A DNA stretch of 64,000 nt from Opitutales bacterium. Its GTDB lineage: Bacteria > Verrucomicrobiota > Verrucomicrobiia > Opitutales > UBA2987. Location of the stretch: assembly GCA_965226885.1 (NCBI GenBank), contig CBDDEL010000014.1, positions 512,001-576,000 of the forward strand, read 5' to 3'. Below, one piece after another: positions 45,702-58,769 of this stretch (positions are counted from its first letter, which is position 1; each line of letters begins with the position of its first letter). The notes under the pieces were generated by a model. The model saw only the letters and a program-made list of their open reading frames with translations. It did no database searches and was not told the origin of the DNA. The position numbers and the translations under genes are program-made.

Positions 45702-46389
45702 CAAAAATTGAATAATGTAAATCGATTGTATTATCTATTATATGCTTCAGAAAATGGTTTTAATATTGATGACGAGCAAAACCAGAAAATTTTTGAGGCG
45801 GTAGTTAATATCCTAAGCCCCAATTCAGAGTGGTTGGAAGTAAATAAAATATCAGGAGTTGTTCAGCCTAATAATGCAGCGGGAGTTGTGATATCTTTTA
45901 ATTCAAGAAATATTTCATCCGGAACTTACGAAGCAATCCTCCAAATCGATACCAACGATCCGAGTAATAGAGATTTATCACTCCCGATAACAGTTACTGT
46001 GCAAGATCCGATAGCTCAAGACATTGTTGTTTCGCCTTTACAATTAAATTTCGGTCAATTGACCTCAGAAGCTTCAAGCAGTATTCCATTGACAATAACA
46101 AACTCTGGAGAAGATTTTCTCCATATATCAAACGTGTCCCTTGAAGGTGTTGATTTTTCTTTGGATAACGCCGGAGATATTCGGCTCGATAATGGAGAAA
46201 GCACTCAAATATTTGTTACCTTTAATCCCTGGTCGCAAGGAGAGTTCAACGGCACTATAACGATTCACAGTAATGATACGGAAACTCCGGAAATTACTGT
46301 CGGATTGAACGGATCAGGTCTGGTTCCCGACGGTTCGGTCACAACTGACGAATTAAATATTACATTGGAAAAAAGCCTGATCGGCTTAG
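45702..46389 (+). pseudogene. Internal fragment of a large secreted protein with Ig-like (ASH/choice-of-anchor-D-type) domains
   Basis: GTYEAIL.IDTNDP..LPITVTV, LNFG..LTITNSG..L.IS..F.P...G.ITIHSND..VGLNGSG; cut by IS1 and IS1380. Confidence 0.7.
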
Positions 46390-49094
46390 CCCGGATATTT
46401 CATGAAGGGTAAAGTTTGGCTCGTTATTGCTATTGGAGATGGATTTCTTTGTATTTTGAGCAGATCGTCTTGATTTTTAGGTGTTTTTCAGGGTGTAGAG
46501 ACACTGCCCCCTTTCCCTCATTGGTTCGGTAGTGCCGGGGGCAGCACCAATGCACCCTTTAGGTTGGCACCAATCGGCGGGCCGCATGGTTGAAAAGACT
46601 GGCCCAAGGATAACTCTCACTTAGGTGAAAGTGAATCGTTCGGGTGTTGCGCACGATGACCGCTCCGATCTTGATTAATTTGAGCCGCAGGGTGTGGCAT
46701 TGGGCCCGCGCCCACTTCGTCCCTTTTAAGGCTAACCGGCGCATGGCTTCCATCAAGGTGTAGGCCAGCGCCGACAAGAGCAATCGCCACTGATTGGCCC
46801 ACCATTGATGGGCGCTGGTGCGCTCGCTGAACAATTGCATCTGTTCCTTGATTCGGTTCTCCATTTCACCGCGGCCACAGTATACCTTGTCGTAAAGCTC
46901 CTGGGGATCGCCCGGCAGGTTCGTCACCACGAAGCGCGGGTTGGACCCCTGTGCGGTGTGTTCGGCTTTATGGATGACCAACCGCAGCCATCGCCACGAA
47001 TCGGCAGCATAGACGAAGTCCTGGAATAACCGTTGTTTTTTACCCCTTAGTTCGAACCATTCTTTGGCCTGCTTTTGCAACTGCTGGGCGTCTTGCTGCA
47101 AGCGTGCATTGCGAGCCATCCCCACGATGTAACTATTAATCCGGCAAATAAATAGTGACATATCAATAACTTATGCTAAAGTAGGTTCATGAATAGGAAT
47201 GATGCGCGTTCACTAAGCGAAGAGACTATATATGAGTTGAGGTGTCGGGCGGTGGATCTGAAAAGAGAGGGTTGCACTTATGAAGAGGTTTCCGTGGTTT
47301 TAAAGGTATCGATCAGCGCTGTGCGCAAATGGTGGGCCCTTTACCGAAATGGAGGGCCAAAAGCCCTGCGGCTTGGACAACGGGGCCGTCGGCAGGGCCA
47401 ATGTCGAAGATTGAGCTCCCAACAAGAGCGCATGGTGTGCCGAATGATTACCGATAAGAGGACCCGACCAGCTTAAGATGCCCTTTGCCCTGTGGACGCG
47501 CCAAGCGGTGCAAGAGTTGATTGAAAGGCAGTTTGCTTTGAAGATGCCGATCCGCACGGTGGGCGAGTATCTTCGCCGTTGGGGTTTCACTCCACAAAAA
47601 CCTCGAAGACAAGCCTATGAGCAGCAGCCTGAGGCGATTAAGAAGTGGCTTGATCAAACTTACCCGGCCATCGAAGCCAGAGCCAAAGCGCAACAGGCCC
47701 AAATCCACTGGGGAGATGAAACCGGCATCAGTAGCGAAGATCATCGGGGAAGAGGTTATGCTCCGCGCGGTAAAACGCCAGTTGCCAAACGCAGTGCGCG
47801 TCGTTTTAGCACGAGCATGATCTCGACTATAACCAACCGTGGAAAGCTGCGTTTCATGGTTTACAAGGGAGCCTTGAATGTGGAACTGTTTATCAAATTT
47901 CTGCGCCAGTTAATCAAAGGAGCCAAACGGAAAATCTTTCTCATTGTGGACAATCTGAGAGTGCATCATGCTAAAAAAGTAACCGGTTGGATTGAAGCCC
48001 ACCGCGATAGGATCGAGATTTTTTATCTACCATCTTACAGTCCCGAATTGAACCCCGATGAGTATTTGAATAACACGGTCAAAGCCAACTTGAAGAACCT
48101 GCCGGCCCCGCGCAGCCAAATTGAGTTGCAGGGAAGTCTGCGAACCCACCTGCGCAGCAGGCAACGAAAACCAATTTTGATTAAAAAACTCTTCCATCAT
48201 CGGGATGTTCAATACGCCGCTTAACTGTTACTATTCGCCGCTTAACTGTTACTATTCAATTGCCGGATTAATAACTTCGTTGCGGTCGCACCAAGAGAGT
48301 ATCCGGTCTCGACAAAATCCACTGTCGGCGCGCCAAATAATCCGCGTACGGGGCCAGCTTTGGCGAATCCGTTTAACCAGCAATTTGAGGATGGCCCCGG
48401 CATGCTTGCTGGCATCGATCTTGCTCGGCCGCAGGTAGGCCACCAGCAGCTGATCACCGCAAAAAACATATAGCGGCAGAAAACAGTAATGATCATAATA
48501 ACCGTGGAAAAAACGTCCCTCCTGGAGCCCGTGCACCGGATTGTCGGTGGCGTCAAAGTCCAGGATGATCTCTTCGGGTTCCTCGGCAAAGGAGCCCATG
48601 AACTGTTCGACCAACAGCTCGTTTACCGCAAAGGCCGCCCGCCGATCCTGCCCGTTTTCAAAACGACACAAAGTCGGCGCGCTGGCCAACGTTTCAATGC
48701 GCCCCGTTACCGTTTGCAACAATGGATCGTGGCGCAGGGTATCAAAGTCGTTCAAATCCTCATAGCCCGCCACCAGCCCGTAAACGCGCTGCCGCAGCAT
48801 CCCCAATACCTCATGGCGTACTTTGCCCTTCTGCCGTTTGTCCACTAACTGTCGGGCCGCTCGTTCGGTCAAGCCCAACTGCCGATCCACTTCCCGGATC
48901 AAAAGCAGTCCGGCATCCGAAGTAACCTCTCCGCCCTTGAAATCAACCCGCACACGGCGGCCTTTTACCCTTGTCAACTGTAGCTTTAATTGTTTACCTT
49001 TTGTCATCGCTGATATTGCTTTAATTATTGATCTATCCTGCTGTATATCAGCAGTTAAGCATATCAACGATACTTTTTTTACGAAATATCCGGG
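46390..49094 (-). mobile_element. IS1380-family copy A, interrupted by IS630 type B
   Basis: IR CCCGGATATTTC; transposase split 46559-47133 / 48274-49007. Confidence 0.93.
47136..48271 (+). mobile_element. IS630-family type B, copy 2 (frameshifted ~47460)
   Basis: TA duplicated 47134-35/48272-73; WGDETG, IVDNLRVH, LPSYSPELNPDE; 21-bp duplication 48216-48257. Confidence 0.93.
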
Positions 49095-49429
49095 CTAGCC
49101 GCACTTGCCTTTTTAAAAATTGTCTTAATTTTATTATCATTTGTCTTAACATAGTATCCTCCAGACTCTGGAGTGTCACTTTTCTCATTGGTTTTTACAA
49201 GCGGATATTGTCAATGCCATTTGGCGTAAATGGCGTAAAACAATATTATATTACCCCGAAAATATAACCCGGCAAGGACATATCGGGACTTACCCTGACT
49301 TATTATGAAGACTTAAACTTGACTGAAGTTACTCTTATCCAAAGAGTTAAATGCTCTCAACAAACAGCGATATATTTTGAACTGAAGACAGTTGCTTATT
49401 AAAAACCCGATAACCTATTTCTTTTTCAT

Positions 49430-50103: not shown

Positions 50104-51378
50104 ATGAGGAAGCACTACAGAATCGCGCTGGGGGGAGACCACGGTGGATTTGAATTGAAACAGGACCTTTTGGCCTATGCCCTGACCAGGGGCCATCATG
50201 TGCGCGATTGCGGAACTCATGGAAAAACTCCGGTCGATTATCCGGATATTGCCAAAAAAGTCGCCGGGATGGTGGCTTCCGGCGATTGCGATTTTGGGGT
50301 CCTAGTCGATGGCGCGGGCATTGGCTCGGCCATGGCAGCAAACAAAGTGCCGGGCATCCTGGCGGCGGCCTGTTATAATGAAGCGCTGGCCCGGAATTCA
50401 CGCCAACACAACGGCGCCAATGTCCTCACACTCGGGTCTGGCCAAACCAACATTTATGAGGCCAAAAAAATACTGGACGCTTTTCTGGAAACCGAATGCA
50501 AGGAAGAAAGGCATCTGCGGCGGGTGCAGCTTATCCGCGATATTGAGAGGGGAAATTATTCAACGACCGCAGCCATCGCGGAAACGGACAGTATCCTGGG
50601 AAAGCAGGAAATTCATCCCCACGACCTTGAGCGTATATCCCGCCGGGTGCAGGAATTAACCAGTGGCAATCCACCAGCGCAGGGCAACGGCGCATTTATC
50701 GGCCCGGACGAGATTGCCCAAATGATCGACCACACCATTTTGAAACCGGAGGCGTCTCTGGGAGACGTCCAAAAACTGAGTGAAGAAGCCAGGCAGTACC
50801 ACTTTTACTCTGTTTGTGTGAACCCCATCTATGCCCGCCAAGCCAAAGCCGCCCTGACCGGGACCGACGTTAAAGTTTGCTGTGTGGTGGGGTTTCCTCT
50901 GGGGGCCAATCCGCCGGAAACCAAGGCCATGGAAGCCCGCCGGGCCATCCGCGAAGGGGCCGGGGAAATCGACATGGTGATCAATGTGGGGGCCATGAAA
51001 AGCGGGAATGAGGATCTCGTATTGAAAGATATCCGCGCTGTGGCCGAGGCCTGTCGCGATGGCAGTGCCCTGCTCAAGGTGATTCTGGAAACCAGTCTTT
51101 TAACGGACCGGGAAAAAGTCCGGGTTTGTGAGTTGGCGATGAAAGCGGGGGCTGATTTTGTTAAGACCTCCACCGGTTTCGGTTCCGCCGGGGCCACGGT
51201 GGAAGATATCGCCCTGATGGCCAAAACAGTGGCGCAAAAAAAACTGGGAGTAAAAGCTTCCGGGGGAGTGCGCACCTATGAAGACGCGGTCAAAATGATT
51301 CGGGCAGGAGCCACCCGCATCGGCGCCAGCAGCGGAATCAAAATCGTCAAAAAAGCCATCGAACTGGCATCGAAATAG
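50104..51378 (+). CDS. deoC: RpiB-type sugar-phosphate isomerase - deoxyribose-phosphate aldolase fusion
   Basis: GGDHGG, PVDYPD, AANKVPG, HNGANVL; then [38 protein letters not shown]. Confidence 0.92.
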
Positions 51379-51413: not shown

Positions 51414-52037
51414 ATGGTTGAATTAAGAACCTACACCTTTCTGGACAGCCTGCAGCCGCAGTTTGCCTCGTTTATCGCCACCATTGCGGGAGGCTACTTG
51501 CCGGTTCCCGGCCAGGCTTCACTTTTCATCGAAATATCGCCCGGCATGGAAATCAACCGGGTGACCGATATCGCCTTGAAAGCGACCAACGTCAGGCCGG
51601 GCATGATGATCATTGAGCGGGTTTTTGGAATGCTCGAGGTGCACTCCAATTCCCAGGCCGATGTTCGCCAGGCGGGCGCGGCCATTCTGGAAGCGCTCGA
51701 TCTCAAAGAAGAAGACCGCCTAAAGCCGCATATCTCGACCAGCCAGTTGATCCGCAACATGTCCGATTACCACACCCAATTGATCAACAAGACCCGGCAT
51801 GGAAACATGATATTACCCGGACAAACCCTTTACATTATGGAGGTGGCCCCGGCCGGTTATGCCGCCATTGCGGCCAATGAGGCGGAAAAAGCGGCCAATA
51901 TCAATATCCTCGAGGTCAGGACCTTCGGCTCATTCGGGCGTTTCTACCTGGGGGGTGACGAGGCCGACATGGAAGTCGGTTACAAAGCGGCCGAACAAGC
52001 CATCAAGGATATCGATGGCCGGGAAATGAAACGCTAG
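51414..52037 (+). CDS. BMC-T shell protein (permuted, CcmP/CsoS1D-like)
   Basis: ELRTY.FLDSLQPQ, IER.FGMLEVH, PAGYAAIAANEAEKAANI, GSFGRFYL. Confidence 0.9.
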   Translation: MVELRTYTFLDSLQPQFASFIATIAGGYLPVPGQASLFIEISPGMEINRVTDIALKATNVRPGMMIIERVFGMLEVHSNSQADVRQAGAAILEALDLKEEDRLKPHISTSQLIRNMSDYHTQLINKTRHGNMILPGQTLYIMEVAPAGYAAIAANEAEKAANINILEVRTFGSFGRFYLGGDEADMEVGYKAAEQAIKDIDGREMKR

Positions 52038-52109: not shown

Positions 52110-52409
52110 ATGGCAGAAGCATTAGGAATGGTGGAAACAAGATCGTTTGCCGCAGCCGTGGAAGCGGGCGACGCGATGGTAAAGGCTGCCAAGGTGGATC
52201 TCGTTTCTTACGAGAAAACCGGCGGCGGCTACATAACGGTAATAGTCAGAGGCGACGTCGCCTCGGTTAAAGCATCCTGCGATGCCGGGCAGGTCGCCGG
52301 CTCCCGGGTAGGAGAAGTGGTCGCCGTGCACGTGATCCCGCGCCCGCACGCCAATATCGATCAGGTTCTGCCGCTGGGCCGCACTCCGCGGGCCGGAAGC
52401 AAAAAATAA
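52110..52409 (+). CDS. BMC-H hexameric shell protein
   Basis: [35 protein letters not shown]. Confidence 0.95.
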
Positions 52410-52512: not shown

Positions 52513-52800
52513 ATGAATCTCGGAAAAGTAGTCGGCACCTTGGTTGCCAGCCAAAAAGTTTCCAGCATGGATGGGCTCAAGCTCCTCCTGGTAAAATACC
52601 TCGATAGCTCCGGCCAGGAAACCGGCGGCCAGGTGGTGGCCGCGGACGCCGTTGGCGCCGGGGTGGAGGAATACGTCCTCATCGCCACCGGCAGTTCCGC
52701 CCGGCAAACAGAAGCCACCGATAACCGACCCTGCGATGCCGTCATCCTGGCCATCGTCGACAGTTGGGAAATCGGTGGGGACATCGTCTATAAAAAATAA
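52513..52800 (+). CDS. BMC-P vertex protein (EutN/CcmL)
   Basis: [35 protein letters not shown]. Confidence 0.95.
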
Positions 52801-52826
52801 ATAAATAAAACTTCTATAAGTTGCCC

Positions 52827-53657
52827 ATGCGTTTAACAGATCACGAAATCGAAGCCATCGCCCAAAAAATCGCTTCCAAAACTCCGGCTTCTGGCCGGCG
52901 ACCGATAGTAGTCGGCAATTGGAAGATGCACAAGACGCCCTCCGAGGGCGAGGCCTTGGTGCGGGAATTAGCCGCCCTGGTGCAGACTGCGGATTGTGAA
53001 ATCGGGGTCGCTCCCGCCTTTCCGTGCCTGGAACGAGTGGGCAATGCACTGACTGGGGCCGGATCAAAGGTTTTGCTTTGCGCCCAGAATGCTTATTGGG
53101 AAAAGGAGGGCGCCTATACCGGCGAGGTGGCCATCGGCATGTTGGTCGAGATCGGCGTTACCCACATCATCATCGGCCATAGCGAGCGCAGGCAGTATTT
53201 CGGAGAAACGGATGAGACCGTCAACGGCAGGGCGAAAGCGGTTCTTGAGGCCGGACTGACCTCCATTCTCTGCGTGGGGGAATCCCTTCAGGACCGCGAA
53301 GCCGGATTAACCAATGCCGTGGTCGATCGTCAGGTCAGGGGCGGATTGGCGGGGCTGTCCAGCAGCCAGGTCGCAGGCATGGTGCTTGCCTATGAACCGG
53401 TTTGGGCTATCGGCACGGGCAAGGTGGCCACAGTGGAAGAGGCCCAGGCGGTCCATGCCGTCATTCGCCAACTTCTGACCGAGCTATACGACGAGCCGAC
53501 AGCCGAAGCCGTGCGCATCCAGTACGGAGGCAGCGTGAAACCGGACAACGCCGCCCAACTGCTGGCCCAACCGGACATTGATGGAGCGCTGGTGGGGGGC
53601 GCTGCTTTAAAAGCGACGGATTTCGCCGCCATCTGTTTGGCCGCTGGGAGGCCGTAG
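52827..53657 (+). CDS. tpiA: Triosephosphate isomerase with N-terminal encapsulation-peptide-like extension
   Basis: [33 protein letters not shown]; extra [17 protein letters not shown]. Confidence 0.93.
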
Positions 53658-53720
53658 TTTTTCCATTGAATATATAAAGAATCAAAATTTCCCGAATATT
53701 CTGCAGGGAGAGATTTCAGG

Positions 53721-55175
53721 ATGATAAGATTGACCGATCAAGAGATTGAAGCCATCGCGGAAAAGATAGCCCGCATTCAGCAGGCGTCCCTGGCGGCTGG
53801 AATTCCCGCCGGTCTCGTTCCATCCGCAGTTTCTCTTCCCAGTCAAAACCTGGGCGTATTTCCCACCGTCGAAGCGGCCGTGGCGGCGGCCAAAATAGCT
53901 CAAATATCGTGGGTGGCCCTCCCGCTCGACCATCGCCGCCGGATCATCGCCGCAATTCGCGAAGTAATGCTGGAAAACGCGGCGCCCCTGGCCAAGGCGG
54001 CCCACGATGAAACCGGTTTGGGACGGTTTGAGGACAAGGTTGTAAAAAATCGCCTGGTGACGGAAAAAACCCCCGGCATTGAGGAGCTTCAACCCATTTC
54101 CTACACTGGCGATCACGGTCTTACCTTGCAGGAATCGGCGCCCTTCGGCGTCATCGGGGCCATCACCCCGACGACCAACCCCACTTCCACCATCATTTGT
54201 AATTCCATCGGCATGATCGCGGCCGGCAACAGCGTCGCTTTCAACGTCCATCCCAACGCCAAAAGCTGTTCCGCCCAGACCATTGTTTTGCTCAATAAAA
54301 CGATCCTGAACGAAGGCGGGCCGGAAAATCTGGTCACCACGGTGGCCACGCCGACCATCCAGAGCGCCCAGGCCCTCATGGCCCATAAGGATGTCCGGCT
54401 GGTGGTGGTCACAGGCGGTCCTGGGGTGGTCAAAGCGGCCCAACAGAGCGGCAAGCGAGCCATTTGCGCCGGGCCGGGCAATCCCCCCGTGGTGGTCGAT
54501 GAGACCGCAGATATGGCCAATGCCGCCAAATGTATCGTTCTGGGCGCCTCGACCGACAATAACATCATTTGCACGAATGAGAAAGAGGTCGTCGTAGTTT
54601 CCAGTGTGGCCGACCAGTTGATGGCGGCCTTCGAGGACCGCCAGGATGCCTATATCATTTCTTCCGAACAAATGGCTCAACTCGAAAATGTCATTTTTAC
54701 GGAAATGCACGGACCAAGACAAAAGGCCAGGGTAAATCCTGCCTGCATCGGCAAAAACGCCAATGTCATCCTGCGGCAGATCGGTCTCGATTTACCGGAT
54801 ACGATTCGCCTGGGCATCGTAGAAGTCAATGAAGGCCATCCACTACTTTGGACCGAGCAAATGATGCCGATCATGCCGGTAACCCGGGTGCCCAATGCCG
54901 ATTACGCCATCGACCTGGCCGTCAAAATGGAAAGCGGCTGCCGCCATACCGCCGTCATGCATTCGAAGAACATCGACAACCTGAGCCGCATGGCGCGTGA
55001 GTGCAATTGCAGTATTTTCGTTAAAAACGGCCGCTCCCAGGCAGGCCTCGGTCTGGATGGCGAAGGCTATTGTTCCTTTACCATCGCCAGTCCCACGGGG
55101 GAAGGACTAACCGGACCGCGTTCCTTTTCGCGCTGGCGTAGGTGTACTTTGGTGGACGCTTTCAGGATCATCTGA
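53721..55175 (+). CDS. CoA-acylating aldehyde dehydrogenase (EutE/PduP-like) with encapsulation peptide
   Basis: ETGLGR..DK..KN, PFGVIGAITPTTNP, TGGPGVV, AGPGNPP, NNIICTNEK, SPTGEGLT..RRC. Confidence 0.93.
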   Translation: MIRLTDQEIEAIAEKIARIQQASLAAGIPAGLVPSAVSLPSQNLGVFPTVEAAVAAAKIAQISWVALPLDHRRRIIAAIREVMLENAAPLAKAAHDETGLGRFEDKVVKNRLVTEKTPGIEELQPISYTGDHGLTLQESAPFGVIGAITPTTNPTSTIICNSIGMIAAGNSVAFNVHPNAKSCSAQTIVLLNKTILNEGGPENLVTTVATPTIQSAQALMAHKDVRLVVVTGGPGVVKAAQQSGKRAICAGPGNPPVVVDETADMANAAKCIVLGASTDNNIICTNEKEVVVVSSVADQLMAAFEDRQDAYIISSEQMAQLENVIFTEMHGPRQKARVNPACIGKNANVILRQIGLDLPDTIRLGIVEVNEGHPLLWTEQMMPIMPVTRVPNADYAIDLAVKMESGCRHTAVMHSKNIDNLSRMARECNCSIFVKNGRSQAGLGLDGEGYCSFTIASPTGEGLTGPRSFSRWRRCTLVDAFRII

Positions 55176-55179
55176 TTTG

Positions 55180-55827
55180 ATGAAAAAGCATCCTGCCATT
55201 GCCACCGTTGAATTTCAGAATATCGCCGTGGGCCTTCATACCACGGACGCCATGCTGAAAAGAGCGCCCATCGACCTCATTAAGTCGGGCACCATCAGCC
55301 GCGGACGCTTTCTCACCCTGATTGCCGGTACGACGGCCTCCGTGGATGAATCCTACCACACGGGGCTCATCCTGGGCGGCGACAGCGTGGTGGACAGCGT
55401 GCTCCTGGTGGACGTGCATTGCGATGTGCATGACGCCGTATTCGGTCAACGCACGCCCTGCCTGCCCCTGGCCACAGCCATAATGGAAACCGATACCGTT
55501 TCCAGCAACATCAGGGCGGCCGAAATGGCCCTCAAGGGCACCGACGTCAGCCTGGTCGAGATTCGTTTGGCCGACAGCCTTTTATCGGGCAAAGGACTCA
55601 GCATCTACCAGGGCGAACTCCATGAAATCGAATCGGCCATGGAGATCGCGGGAAACTTCCTGAACTCCCGAAAGATTGAGTTTACGGAGAAAATCATCGC
55701 CTCGCCCCACGAGGGTCTGGTCGAGCAAATCAATTTCACGACCTCTTTCAACAAAGCGAAATACCTCGAACTGGAAGGCGAAGGGAATTACCTGCCTGGA
55801 TTTGAAGCTCTGTCTGGCAGGTTTTAA
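55180..55827 (+). CDS. BMC-T shell protein (PduT-like, single layer)
   Basis: Two BMC domains: EFQNIAVG..DAMLK..; ETDTVSS..AAE.ALKGTDV.L.EIRLA..GKG; lacks the PduT Fe-S Cys. Confidence 0.85.
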   Translation: MKKHPAIATVEFQNIAVGLHTTDAMLKRAPIDLIKSGTISRGRFLTLIAGTTASVDESYHTGLILGGDSVVDSVLLVDVHCDVHDAVFGQRTPCLPLATAIMETDTVSSNIRAAEMALKGTDVSLVEIRLADSLLSGKGLSIYQGELHEIESAMEIAGNFLNSRKIEFTEKIIASPHEGLVEQINFTTSFNKAKYLELEGEGNYLPGFEALSGRF

Positions 55828-55845
55828 GATTATTCAAATGTCATA

Positions 55846-56133
55846 ATGAAATTGGGTCGCGTCATTGGAACGGTGGTTTGCTCGGTGCTTTACGAGGGGT
55901 TGGAAGGCGTTCCCATGCTGTGGGTGCAGCCCTTGGACAAAAACCTCGAACCGAAGGGAAATTCTCTGGTGGCGGCGGACCAGACGAGGGCCGCCGGTCC
56001 CGGAGAATTGGTGAATTTTGAGGGCGGGCGCGAGGCGGCTATGGCCCTCGATATCACCTTCGTGCCGGTCGATCACACCATTATCGGGATTATCGACGGT
56101 GTGAATACGATTAGCGGAGAGCAGGGCGCATGA
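55846..56133 (+). CDS. BMC-P vertex protein (EutN/CcmL)
   Basis: GRVIGTVV..VAAD..AGPGE..GREAA..PVDHTIIGIID. Confidence 0.92.
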   Translation: MKLGRVIGTVVCSVLYEGLEGVPMLWVQPLDKNLEPKGNSLVAADQTRAAGPGELVNFEGGREAAMALDITFVPVDHTIIGIIDGVNTISGEQGA

Positions 56134-56411
56134 TCATCGGCAATGTTATCGGAGATGTGTTTTCCACCATCAACCATCCGTTTTACGACGGCAAAAAATT
56201 ACTCATGGTGGAAACGACCGATTTTTCGGGCAAACCGGATGGAGATTACGTCATAGCCATCGATTACGCCCAGGCCGGGGTGGGGGACCAAGTGCTCGTC
56301 CTGGACGAAGGCAATGGTGCCCGCCAGGTGGTTGACGATTCCACCGCTCCGCTTCGCTCCATCATCGTCGGCGTGGTGGACCATGTTGAAATTGGGACGA
56401 ACTCACTTTAG
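56130..56411 (+). CDS. BMC-P vertex protein (EutN/CcmL)
   Basis: [33 protein letters not shown]. Confidence 0.92.
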
Positions 56412-56927: not shown

Positions 56928-57190
56928 TATATAATGATTTTTGCTTAAAAGCTGGCCATTATCGGACTTTGTTATCGAAAAATAAGCATCGATAATTCGC
57001 CCTTATAATTGTGATTTTAAAGTGCAAGAAGCCTTACATCGCCAATAAAACTCTCTAATGTTTGGAGATGAGGTCGGACACTAGAAGGGAAGGCGTTTGT
57101 TAATCGTCGAGGGACGACAAGTTTTACTCGCGTTTCGAGTCATCGAAGAGAAATTGATTTACAGAAACACCCTCCTGAATTGTCAACTAG

Positions 57191-58757
57191 CCCGGATATT
57201 TCGTAAAAAAAGTATCGTTTATATGCTTAACTGCTGATATACAGCAGGATAGATCAATAATTAAAGCAATATCAGCGATGACAAAAGGTAAACAATTAAA
57301 GCTACAGTTGACAAGGGTAAAAGGCCGCCGTGTGCGGGTTGATTTCAAGGGCGGAGAGGTTACTTCGGATGCCGGACTGCTTTTGATCCGGGAAGTGGAT
57401 CGGCAGTTGGGCTTGACCGAACGAGCGGCCCGACAGTTAGTGGACAAACGGCAGAAGGGCAAAGTACGCCATGAGGTATTGGGGATGCTGCGGCAGCGCG
57501 TTTACGGGCTGGTGGCGGGCTATGAGGATTTGAACGACTTTGATACCCTGCGCCACGATCCATTGTTGCAAACGGTAACGGGGCGCATTGAAACGTTGGC
57601 CAGCGCGCCGACTTTGTGTCGTTTTGAAAACGGGCAGGATCGGCGGGCGGCCTTTGCGGTAAACGAGCTGTTGGTCGAACAGTTCATGGGCTCCTTTGCC
57701 GAGGAACCCGAAGAGATCATCCTGGACTTTGACGCCACCGACAATCCGGTGCACGGGCTCCAGGAGGGACGTTTTTTCCACGGTTATTATGATCATTACT
57801 GTTTTCTGCCGCTATATGTTTTTTGCGGTGATCAGCTGCTGGTGGCCTACCTGCGGCCGAGCAAGATCGATGCCAGCAAGCATGCTGGGGCCATCCTCAA
57901 ATTGCTGGTTAAACGGATTCGCCAAAGCTGGCCCCGTACGCGGATTATTTGGCGCGCCGACAGTGGATTTTGTCGAGACCGGATACTCTCTTGGTGCGAC
58001 CGCAACGAAGTTAGTTACATCGTGGGGATGGCTCGCAATGCACGCTTGCAGCAAGACGCCCAGCAGTTGCAAAAGCAGGCCAAAGAATGGTTCGAACTAA
58101 GGGGTAAAAAACAACGGTTATTCCAGGACTTCGTCTATGCTGCCGATTCGTGGCGATGGCTGCGGTTGGTCATCCATAAAGCCGCACACACCGCACAGGG
58201 GTCCAACCCGCGCTTCGTGGTGACGAACCTGCCGGGCGATCCCCAGGAGCTTTACGACAAGGTATACTGTGGCCGCGGTGAAATGGAGAACCGAATCAAG
58301 GAACAGATGCAATTGTTCAGCGAGCGCACCAGCGCCCATCAATGGTGGGCCAATCAGTGGCGATTGCTCTTGTCGGCGCTGGCCTACACCTTGATGGAAG
58401 CCATGCGCCGGTTAGCCTTAAAAGGGACGAAGTGGGCGCGGGCCCAATGCCACACCCTGCGGCTCAAATTAATCAAGATCGGAGCGGTCATCGTGCGCAA
58501 CACCCGAACGATTCACTTTCACCTAAGTGAGAGTTATCCTTGGGCCAGTCTTTTCAACCATGCGGCCCGCCGATTGGTGCCAACCTAAAGGGTGCATTGG
58601 TGCTGCCCCCGGCACTACCGAACCAATGGGGGAAAGGGGGCAGTGTCTCTACACCCTGAAAAACACCTAAAAATCAAGACGATCTGCTCAAAATACAAAG
58701 AAATCCATCTCCAATAGCAATAACGAGCCAAACTTTACCCTTCATGAAATATCCGGG
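57191..58757 (+). mobile_element. IS1380-family copy B (intact; transposase 57278-58588)
   Basis: IR CCCGGATATTTC, CTAG on both flanks; TSDAG, LDFDATD, RADSGF, RGEMENRIKE. Confidence 0.96.
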
Positions 58758-58769
58758 CTAGTTCTTTTC

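Follow-up and report, generated by a model that had tools for sequence, protein, structure and literature searches.

The 64-kb window analysed here (64,000 nucleotides; contig CBDDEL010000014.1, positions 512,001 to 576,000) comes from the genome of an Opitutales bacterium (GCA_965226885.1; hereafter G000) and contains an operon for a bacterial microcompartment (BMC) in which a gene for triosephosphate isomerase (TPI) directly precedes a gene for a CoA-acylating-type aldehyde dehydrogenase (AldDH). Both genes lie on the plus strand, and their products begin with nearly the same short peptide. An ATG at 52827 opens the 276-residue TPI reading frame (52827..53657), and an ATG at 53721 opens the 484-residue AldDH frame (53721..55175; Pfam Aldedh at residues 49–438). 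AldDH begins MIRLTDQEIEAIAEKIA (longer N terminus, MIRLTDQEIEAIAEKIARIQ); its residues 1–18 (53721..53774) constitute an encapsulation peptide (EP), the motif of which also heads the AldDH of 26 metagenome loci. Residues 1–18 of TPI (52827..52880) form an EP-like helix, recognizable by its likeness to the AldDH leader and predicted by AlphaFold2, and are followed by a variable linker that is predicted to be disordered (residues 19–26; 52881..52904). The two leaders align as RLTD(H/Q)EIEAIA(Q/E)KIA: 13 of 15 positions agree in the protein against only 33 of 45 in the DNA, and different codons encode 10 of the 13 shared residues; the initial annotation, which had described the TPI start as a near-copy of the AldDH peptide with DNA that differs at many synonymous positions, was accurate in both respects. 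Within the window, a degenerate DNA search for R-L-T-[DE]-x-E-[IVM]-[DE]-A-I-A matched just these two leaders, and 100 shuffles gave no match.

The operon is compact, with the gene order RpiB–DERA, BMC-T-like, BMC-H, BMC-P, TPI, AldDH, BMC-T and two further BMC-P genes, and is the only BMC locus in G000. It is a sugar-phosphate-utilising (SPU; deoxyribose-phosphate) microcompartment operon of the SPU3 type. SPU microcompartments are defined by DERA and AldDH together with shell genes (PMC11585597), and Pfam detected DERA (PF01791), AldDH, BMC-H, BMC-T and BMC-P together at this locus. An RPI–DERA chimera is, in the subtype descriptions of the same paper, reported only for SPU3 (20 loci; representative, Verrucomicrobia bacterium ADurb.Bin018). 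The window encodes this signature enzyme in a single open reading frame of 424 residues (50104..51378), with PF02502 (LacAB_rpiB, E = 1.6e-46) at residues 7–144 and PF01791 (DeoC, E = 3.5e-20) at residues 205–416. Its interdomain linker (residues about 145–205) has a single cysteine and a helix-like 12-residue segment, and in the internal helix (residues about 183–195) the hydrophobic residues are spaced as in the TPI and AldDH leaders. As in published SPU3 loci (PMC11585597), the fusion is accompanied by an N-terminal EP on AldDH and three BMC-P genes, and PTAC is absent. Upstream of TPI, the shell genes encode a BMC-T-like protein of 207 residues (51414..52037; Pfam BMC at 141–197) that is 72–84% identical to its counterparts in at least 20 related metagenome operons, a 99-residue BMC-H protein (52110..52409; Pfam BMC, E = 1e-28) and a 95-residue BMC-P vertex protein (52513..52800; EutN_CcmL, E = 9.4e-29). 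Downstream of AldDH follow a 216-residue BMC-T protein with two BMC domains (55177..55827; Pfam BMC in two stretches, E = 2.6e-20) and the second and third BMC-P vertex proteins (55846..56133, EutN_CcmL, E = 1.2e-20; 56130..56411, EutN_CcmL, E = 7.9e-22), all of these also on the plus strand. AldDH itself is 59–70% identical over its full length to the AldDHs of related SPU3-like operons.

The TPI match to PF00121 (TIM) spans residues 26–272 and profile positions 1–244 of 245 (E = 1.6e-93; score, 313.2 bits; gathering cut-off, 20.1), leaving about 25 residues in front of the domain. N31, K33, H118 and E190, which we take to be the catalytic residues, are invariant in 25 aligned TPIs and in the 10 EP-bearing TPIs (EP-TPIs) described below, in agreement with the initial reading of the catalytic motifs as intact. 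Between the first codon and NWKM there is no in-frame ATG, GTG or TTG, so an enzyme that retains N31 and K33 can be made only with the extension; the start does not lie downstream of the peptide, where it would cost the enzyme both residues. The public gene call P0004 (225 residues) uses an internal GTG after residue 51 and thereby cuts off the leader, N31 and K33, for which reason we consider its start to be wrong; six public gene calls from sister genomes (P0001–P0003 and P0005–P0007) contain the leader. P0004 is an example of the start-site misannotation to which Dwyer, Sutter and Kerfeld (2024, PMC11585597) drew attention. The gene at 52827..53657 probably encodes an active TPI that carries an 18-residue EP, joined by a short flexible linker to the TIM barrel.

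Metatranscriptome contigs from four RNA libraries, all of one study, are at least 99% identical to the locus. One of them (52675–52873) joins the end of the BMC-P gene to the TPI leader and another (52844–52991) extends from the leader into the barrel-coding part; given possible DNA carry-over, these are at best a weak hint of co-transcription. Such contigs reveal neither transcript ends nor transcript levels, and stretches of the locus that they do not cover carry no information. Directly before TPI, a promoter and terminator scan detected nothing promoter-like. A weak hairpin of terminator type, with a T-run, coincides with the TPI stop codon in front of AldDH (53638–53654), and terminator-like sites were not in excess of shuffled sequence (13 versus 10.5).

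EPs are generally described as amphipathic helices of about 15–20 residues (PMC8217296), and the legend of Table S2 of PMC11585597 defines them by a helix of more than 10 residues, a poorly conserved unstructured linker and the lack of a counterpart of the extension in non-BMC homologues. The TPI extension has each of the three defining features: AlphaFold2 (25-row alignment) predicts a helix at residues 5–18, a predicted local distance difference test score (pLDDT) below 50 at residues 19–22 and the TIM barrel from residue 27 (mean pLDDT of 89.6 overall and 87 for residues 1–10); the sequence and length of the linker vary among EP-TPIs; and the non-BMC TPIs compared have no corresponding segment. 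Comparison of the five species of the genus (G000–G004) showed that the peptide is maintained. TPI keeps MRLTD[HN]EIEAIAQKI[AV] and AldDH keeps MIRLT[DE]QEIEAIAEKIA, both from a conserved ATG, and L3, I8, I11 and I15 of the TPI leader are invariant within the genus. Over the 10 species pairs, we counted 42 synonymous versus 10 non-synonymous codon differences in the TPI leader (codons 2–16), 29 versus 20 in the TPI linker (codons 17–24) and 52 versus 6 in the AldDH leader. The TPI leader is under purifying selection across the five species, and it is conserved at the protein level, as had initially been proposed. The codons also remain distinct by gene in all five species (Leu, TTA in TPI versus TTG in AldDH; Thr, ACA/ACG versus ACC), which marks the two leaders as old paralogues rather than the outcome of recent conversion or an assembly artefact.

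Non-BMC TPIs of relatives did not have this extension in the family, in 112 loci outside the genus or among the phylum matches listed. The housekeeping TPIs of four family genomes from other genera are 43–45% identical to the window TPI, align only from residue 22–24 and have no BMC genes nearby. Of 119 TPI loci, the 7 from the genus have the strict motif and the 112 others lack it. In a phylum sample of 401 Verrucomicrobiota genomes, 395 had a TPI match, and among the 150 matches listed (248 further ones were found) that of G000 alone starts at residue 1, the next earliest starting at residue 9. When a profile built from the 10 EP-TPIs was run against 1.84 billion representative proteins, the leader was present in 1 of the best 150 matches and lacking in the other 149. 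The single positive, P0267 (288 residues), begins VTQKRLTDREIDVIAHKILE and carries a leader of type KRLTDREIDVIAHKILE on a longer linker; it is 45% identical to the window TPI overall and agrees with its leader at 10 of 14 positions; either conservation is stronger in the leader than in the enzyme, or there was more than one capture of the leader. A homologue search with TPI residues 1–40 returned five proteins, all from the genus, a result that is uninformative on distant EP-TPIs owing to the word-index limit of the search. Among the matches listed (580 stretches) in a scan of metagenome contigs with the whole TPI, TPIs were at most 56% identical.

The direction in which the leader moved is indicated by related operons. 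In an exact-pattern scan of metagenome contigs (80 of 97 stretches taken), we found 26 loci with the operon order of the window and the motif at the N terminus of an AldDH of about 475–487 residues; the remaining matches were internal motifs of unrelated proteins. The junction between BMC-P and AldDH is spanned in 24 of these loci. No TPI is present at 23 of the 24 junctions (gap of 0–184 nucleotides), several of the 23 loci being near-identical to each other. The remaining locus, L144, has at the junction a 273-residue TPI beginning MRLTDQEVDAIAHMVAAK, followed by an AldDH beginning MLRLTDQEIEAIALKIAG, and is also the metagenome locus closest to the window (73% identity for RpiB–DERA and 86% for BMC-H). 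TPI is a rare insert in a minority lineage, and the AldDH leader is the widespread state. The presence of the leader on AldDH in 23 operons without TPI, together with the position of TPI immediately upstream of AldDH, supports the view that the leader was copied from AldDH. Four EP-TPIs found here come from outside the genus (L144, P0021, P0063 and P0267; 45–63% identical overall), which places the gain of the leader before the genus arose.

The body of the enzyme points to a different source. Its best matches outside the genus are 250-residue TPIs without an EP that are 68–70% identical, some of them named Candidatus Sumerlaeota; the MR[KR]P start of these proteins coincides with the end of the linker. 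In a tree of 150 rows, the genus forms a clade of 7 rows (support, 99) within a clade of 20–21 rows (support, 97–98) that comprises EP-less TPIs (two named Sumerlaeota) and the EP-bearing P0021. The TPIs of the bacterium's own family are distant from it, at 1.3–1.46 substitutions per site, and fall with TPIs of named Opitutales. In a second tree of 42 hand-chosen rows (all EP-TPIs, the nearest EP-less matches and picked outgroups), the 10 EP-TPIs form one clade (support, 88). When everything before GNWK was removed, the core-only tree placed the EP-TPIs in an 11-row clade, and their monophyly was not rejected (approximately unbiased test, p = 0.76). The trees agree with the leader having been gained once, without proving it. 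The surviving TPI is foreign (68–70% identical to Sumerlaeota-type TPIs versus 44% to those of the family). The initial annotation had proposed that a glycolytic enzyme was recruited into the microcompartment by duplication of the AldDH leader: the copying of the leader is supported by the 23 TPI-less operons, the enzyme that received it is a foreign TPI and not the host's own, and its encapsulation is something that we infer.

No other TPI is present in the genome. The single PF00121 match in G000 (17 contigs; 96.3% complete) is the TPI of the BMC operon, and tblastn searches with this TPI and with a housekeeping TPI of the family (E values up to 10) found no credible second TPI; a second tpiA, which the initial annotation had suggested looking for, does not exist in G000, where the housekeeping copy has been lost. 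Exactly one PF00121 match is found in each of 41 genomes (G000 and 40 relatives), and in all four congeners (81–93% complete) the single TPI is the BMC one. The site of the loss is identifiable. All four family genomes from other genera have the order pgk, tpiA, OmpA-family gene, whereas none of the five genus genomes has tpiA after pgk: G000 has a contiguous stretch of gap, pgk, endonuclease I, M28 peptidase and OmpA, and the congeners have endonuclease I and/or M28 peptidase after pgk. The genus lost the ancestral tpiA of its gap–pgk–tpiA cluster after acquisition of the BMC operon, and the EP-tagged TPI is the only one of the cell. A full-length RpiB–DERA fusion occurs only in the five genus genomes among the 41, and by this confinement the whole operon looks acquired. 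G000 also encodes four class II aldolase-family proteins and one PFK, in addition to gap and pgk, and with these genes it should need a TPI. At the old tpiA site (C17:75766–77956; L228:2766–4953), the endonuclease I gene (PF04231) has its start overlapping the pgk stop and is followed by the M28 peptidase gene; a secreted-type DNase at this position fits the DNA-sugar diet that has been proposed for SPU microcompartments.

The surroundings of the operon have several further features. A gene for O6-methylguanine-DNA methyltransferase (PF01035 and PF02870; 56403–56927, minus strand) converges on the last BMC-P gene with an overlap of 9 nucleotides. Inverted copies of an insertion sequence (IS), 100% identical to each other, flank the operon plus the methyltransferase gene (8088 nucleotides) at 46387–49104 and 57187–58760; the left copy is interrupted by another insertion at about 47136–48271, and the right side holds three more copies, up to 63902. 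The flanking IS copies create a composite-transposon-like setting around the only TPI of the genome. In two sister genomes (G002, L033 7500–12245; G004, L035 2825–6773), approximately 4–4.7 kb are inserted between the second BMC-T gene and the last two BMC-P genes.

A TPI gene in an SPU operon and an EP on TPI are both of known kinds. TPI genes have been reported in all SPU subtypes (Dwyer, Sutter and Kerfeld, Commun Biol 2024, PMC11585597), and SPU owes its name in part to a TIM gene of Atribacteria (Axen et al. 2014, PMC4207490). Table S2 of PMC11585597 predicts an N-terminal EP on TPI for SPU4 only, and enters the SPU3 TPI as ‘x’, that is, without an extension. The SPU4 TPI, as described there, resembles the window TPI in belonging to a DERA-containing SPU locus, in having an N-terminal helix and linker without a counterpart in non-BMC TPIs and in its proposed role, the conversion of glyceraldehyde 3-phosphate (GAP) made by DERA; by the same description it is set apart by its occurrence mostly in Firmicutes (Bacillus horikoshii among them) and by separate DERA and RPI, in contrast to the fusion in the window. 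Because the ‘x’ is a description in a table and not a defining trait, we file the locus as a variant of the SPU3 type. No SPU4-type TPI was recovered through an AldDH search of 401 Bacilli genomes: six genomes matched; in five of them the loci have shell genes but lack both DERA and TPI, and the sixth is without a shell gene. The canonical SPU3-like operon differs from the window in having no TPI between BMC-P and AldDH (the 23 junctions above), where the window has an EP-tagged one. In an Atribacteria SPU locus (L105), TPI likewise adjoins AldDH, but it begins MKDGLALRRLFIAANWKMN without an EP, only its AldDH being tagged, and the genome has a second TPI (two matches). More distant parallels are PduP, PduD and EutC, which bear N-terminal encapsulation peptides. 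They share with the window TPI the arrangement of a short helix at the N terminus followed by a flexible linker and the enzyme, and the occurrence of related helices on several cargo proteins, and they differ in being pathway-specific extra enzymes. An EP-tagged sole copy of a central glycolytic enzyme was not reported in the literature searched (which did not include bioRxiv supplements or supplement 6 of PMC11585597). The initially proposed recruitment of a TPI to a BMC is already published as regards TPI in SPU loci and the EP on SPU4 TPI (PMC11585597). What is new is the rare insertion of an EP-TPI into an SPU3-type operon, comparative evidence that the leader came from AldDH and the displacement of the housekeeping tpiA. 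The papers searched contained neither the insertion nor the sole-copy status of the TPI in the five species, nor the purifying selection on its EP and the lack of this EP in every other Verrucomicrobiota TPI examined.

We propose the following model for the function of the tagged enzyme. The leader on TPI is a paralogue of that on the adjacent AldDH, and the shared helix may bring both enzymes into the same lumen by shell binding, by co-aggregation with EP-bearing cargo or by both; EPs are described as packaging cargo through shell binding and core aggregation (PMC11585597). The RpiB–DERA fusion, with its similarly spaced internal helix, would be packaged together with them. In the lumen, DERA would cleave deoxyribose 5-phosphate to acetaldehyde and GAP, AldDH would drain the acetaldehyde and TPI would turn GAP into dihydroxyacetone phosphate (DHAP), so that both products of the reversible aldolase are removed; as the cleavage is reversible, this removal would pull DERA forward. 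The TPI equilibrium favours DHAP. TPI may in addition keep GAP, itself an aldehyde, away from the acylating AldDH. As the sole TPI of the cell, the enzyme must also serve glycolysis and gluconeogenesis, and either a useful fraction of it would stay in the cytosol through incomplete encapsulation or the shell would exchange both triose phosphates. The SPU shell is expected to pass sugar phosphates (PMC11585597 and PMC8217296).

Several observations weigh against this model. Packaging of TPI is itself a step that we infer, and the status of sole TPI is in tension with strict sequestration. The amphipathicity of the TPI helix is not clear from its hydrophobic moment: the Eisenberg moment of the TPI peptide is 0.25, a value reached by 39% of shuffles, as against 0.49 for the AldDH peptide, reached by 5%. 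There is no obvious Shine–Dalgarno-like sequence before the TPI ATG. The extension of 24–26 residues departs from the ‘x’ entry of SPU3 and is no general feature of that subtype. Finally, the uniformity of leader positions 1–11 among the collected AldDHs arises by construction, being imposed by the search pattern; at the free positions 12–17, most metagenome AldDHs have RRI[AV]AD and the genus has EKIAR.

Four other explanations of the data deserve attention. The shared leader may serve to pair TPI with AldDH through helix–helix contacts, giving a multivalent core of dimers and tetramers that is later enclosed, or a complex independent of the shell. That two oligomeric enzymes bear nearly the same helix speaks for such pairing, as does the role of EPs in both core-protein aggregation and attachment to the shell (PMC11585597); we hold it as a tentative possibility, and it is a variant of the packaging model rather than an alternative to encapsulation, the data fitting both modes. 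Alternatively, the tagged TPI could be mainly a cytosolic housekeeping enzyme, of which little enters the organelle and whose weak or vestigial tag is left over from earlier stages of the operon. This would agree with the lack of any other TPI in five genomes with gap, pgk, aldolase and PFK genes, with the hydrophobic moment of its peptide not exceeding that of shuffles and with the lack of an EP on most SPU-locus TPIs (Table S2 of PMC11585597; Atribacteria L105). We nevertheless judge it unlikely, as a useless tag should have decayed, and the helix is instead under purifying selection (42 synonymous versus 10 non-synonymous differences) and retained in EP-TPIs that are only 45–63% identical (P0021, P0063, L144 and P0267), with 10 of 14 leader positions shared even by P0267.

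The other two explanations concern the data themselves. The genomes resemble metagenome-assembled genomes and are 81–96% complete, so a housekeeping tpiA might lie in the unassembled part of all five; this is very improbable, as the ancestral site is assembled, gap–pgk continues without a gap into other genes in G000, the four congeners show endonuclease I or M28 peptidase where four family members have tpiA, and the same gene would have to have been missed five times independently. Hardly credible at all is a likeness of the leaders at the nucleic-acid level (a duplicated regulatory leader, with TPI translated from a downstream start), which the deposited P0004 start 51 residues later and the lack of a clear ribosome-binding site might suggest, but against which stand the want of an in-frame ATG, GTG or TTG before NWKM, the loss of the invariant N31 and K33 from the annotated start, the closer match in residues (13 of 15) than in bases (33 of 45), the dominance of synonymous changes across species and the inclusion of the leader in six other gene calls from the genus.

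The packaging model suggests a route by which microcompartments add enzymes: a foreign gene is inserted beside a cargo gene and gains a copy of its leader, the same recipe that synthetic biologists use when adding EPs to cargo. Microcompartment cargo normally consists of extra, pathway-specific enzymes; here, the one copy that a lineage retains of a nearly universal glycolytic enzyme is the copy addressed to the organelle. This natural deletion experiment makes two questions testable in a single system, namely how complete EP-mediated packaging is and how freely triose phosphates pass through the SPU shell. It is rather unlikely, in our estimation, that most or all TPI activity resides inside the microcompartment, with GAP and DHAP then crossing the shell for glycolysis and gluconeogenesis. 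If this were so, a protein organelle would be an obligatory station of central carbon metabolism in this genus, not an optional catabolic add-on.

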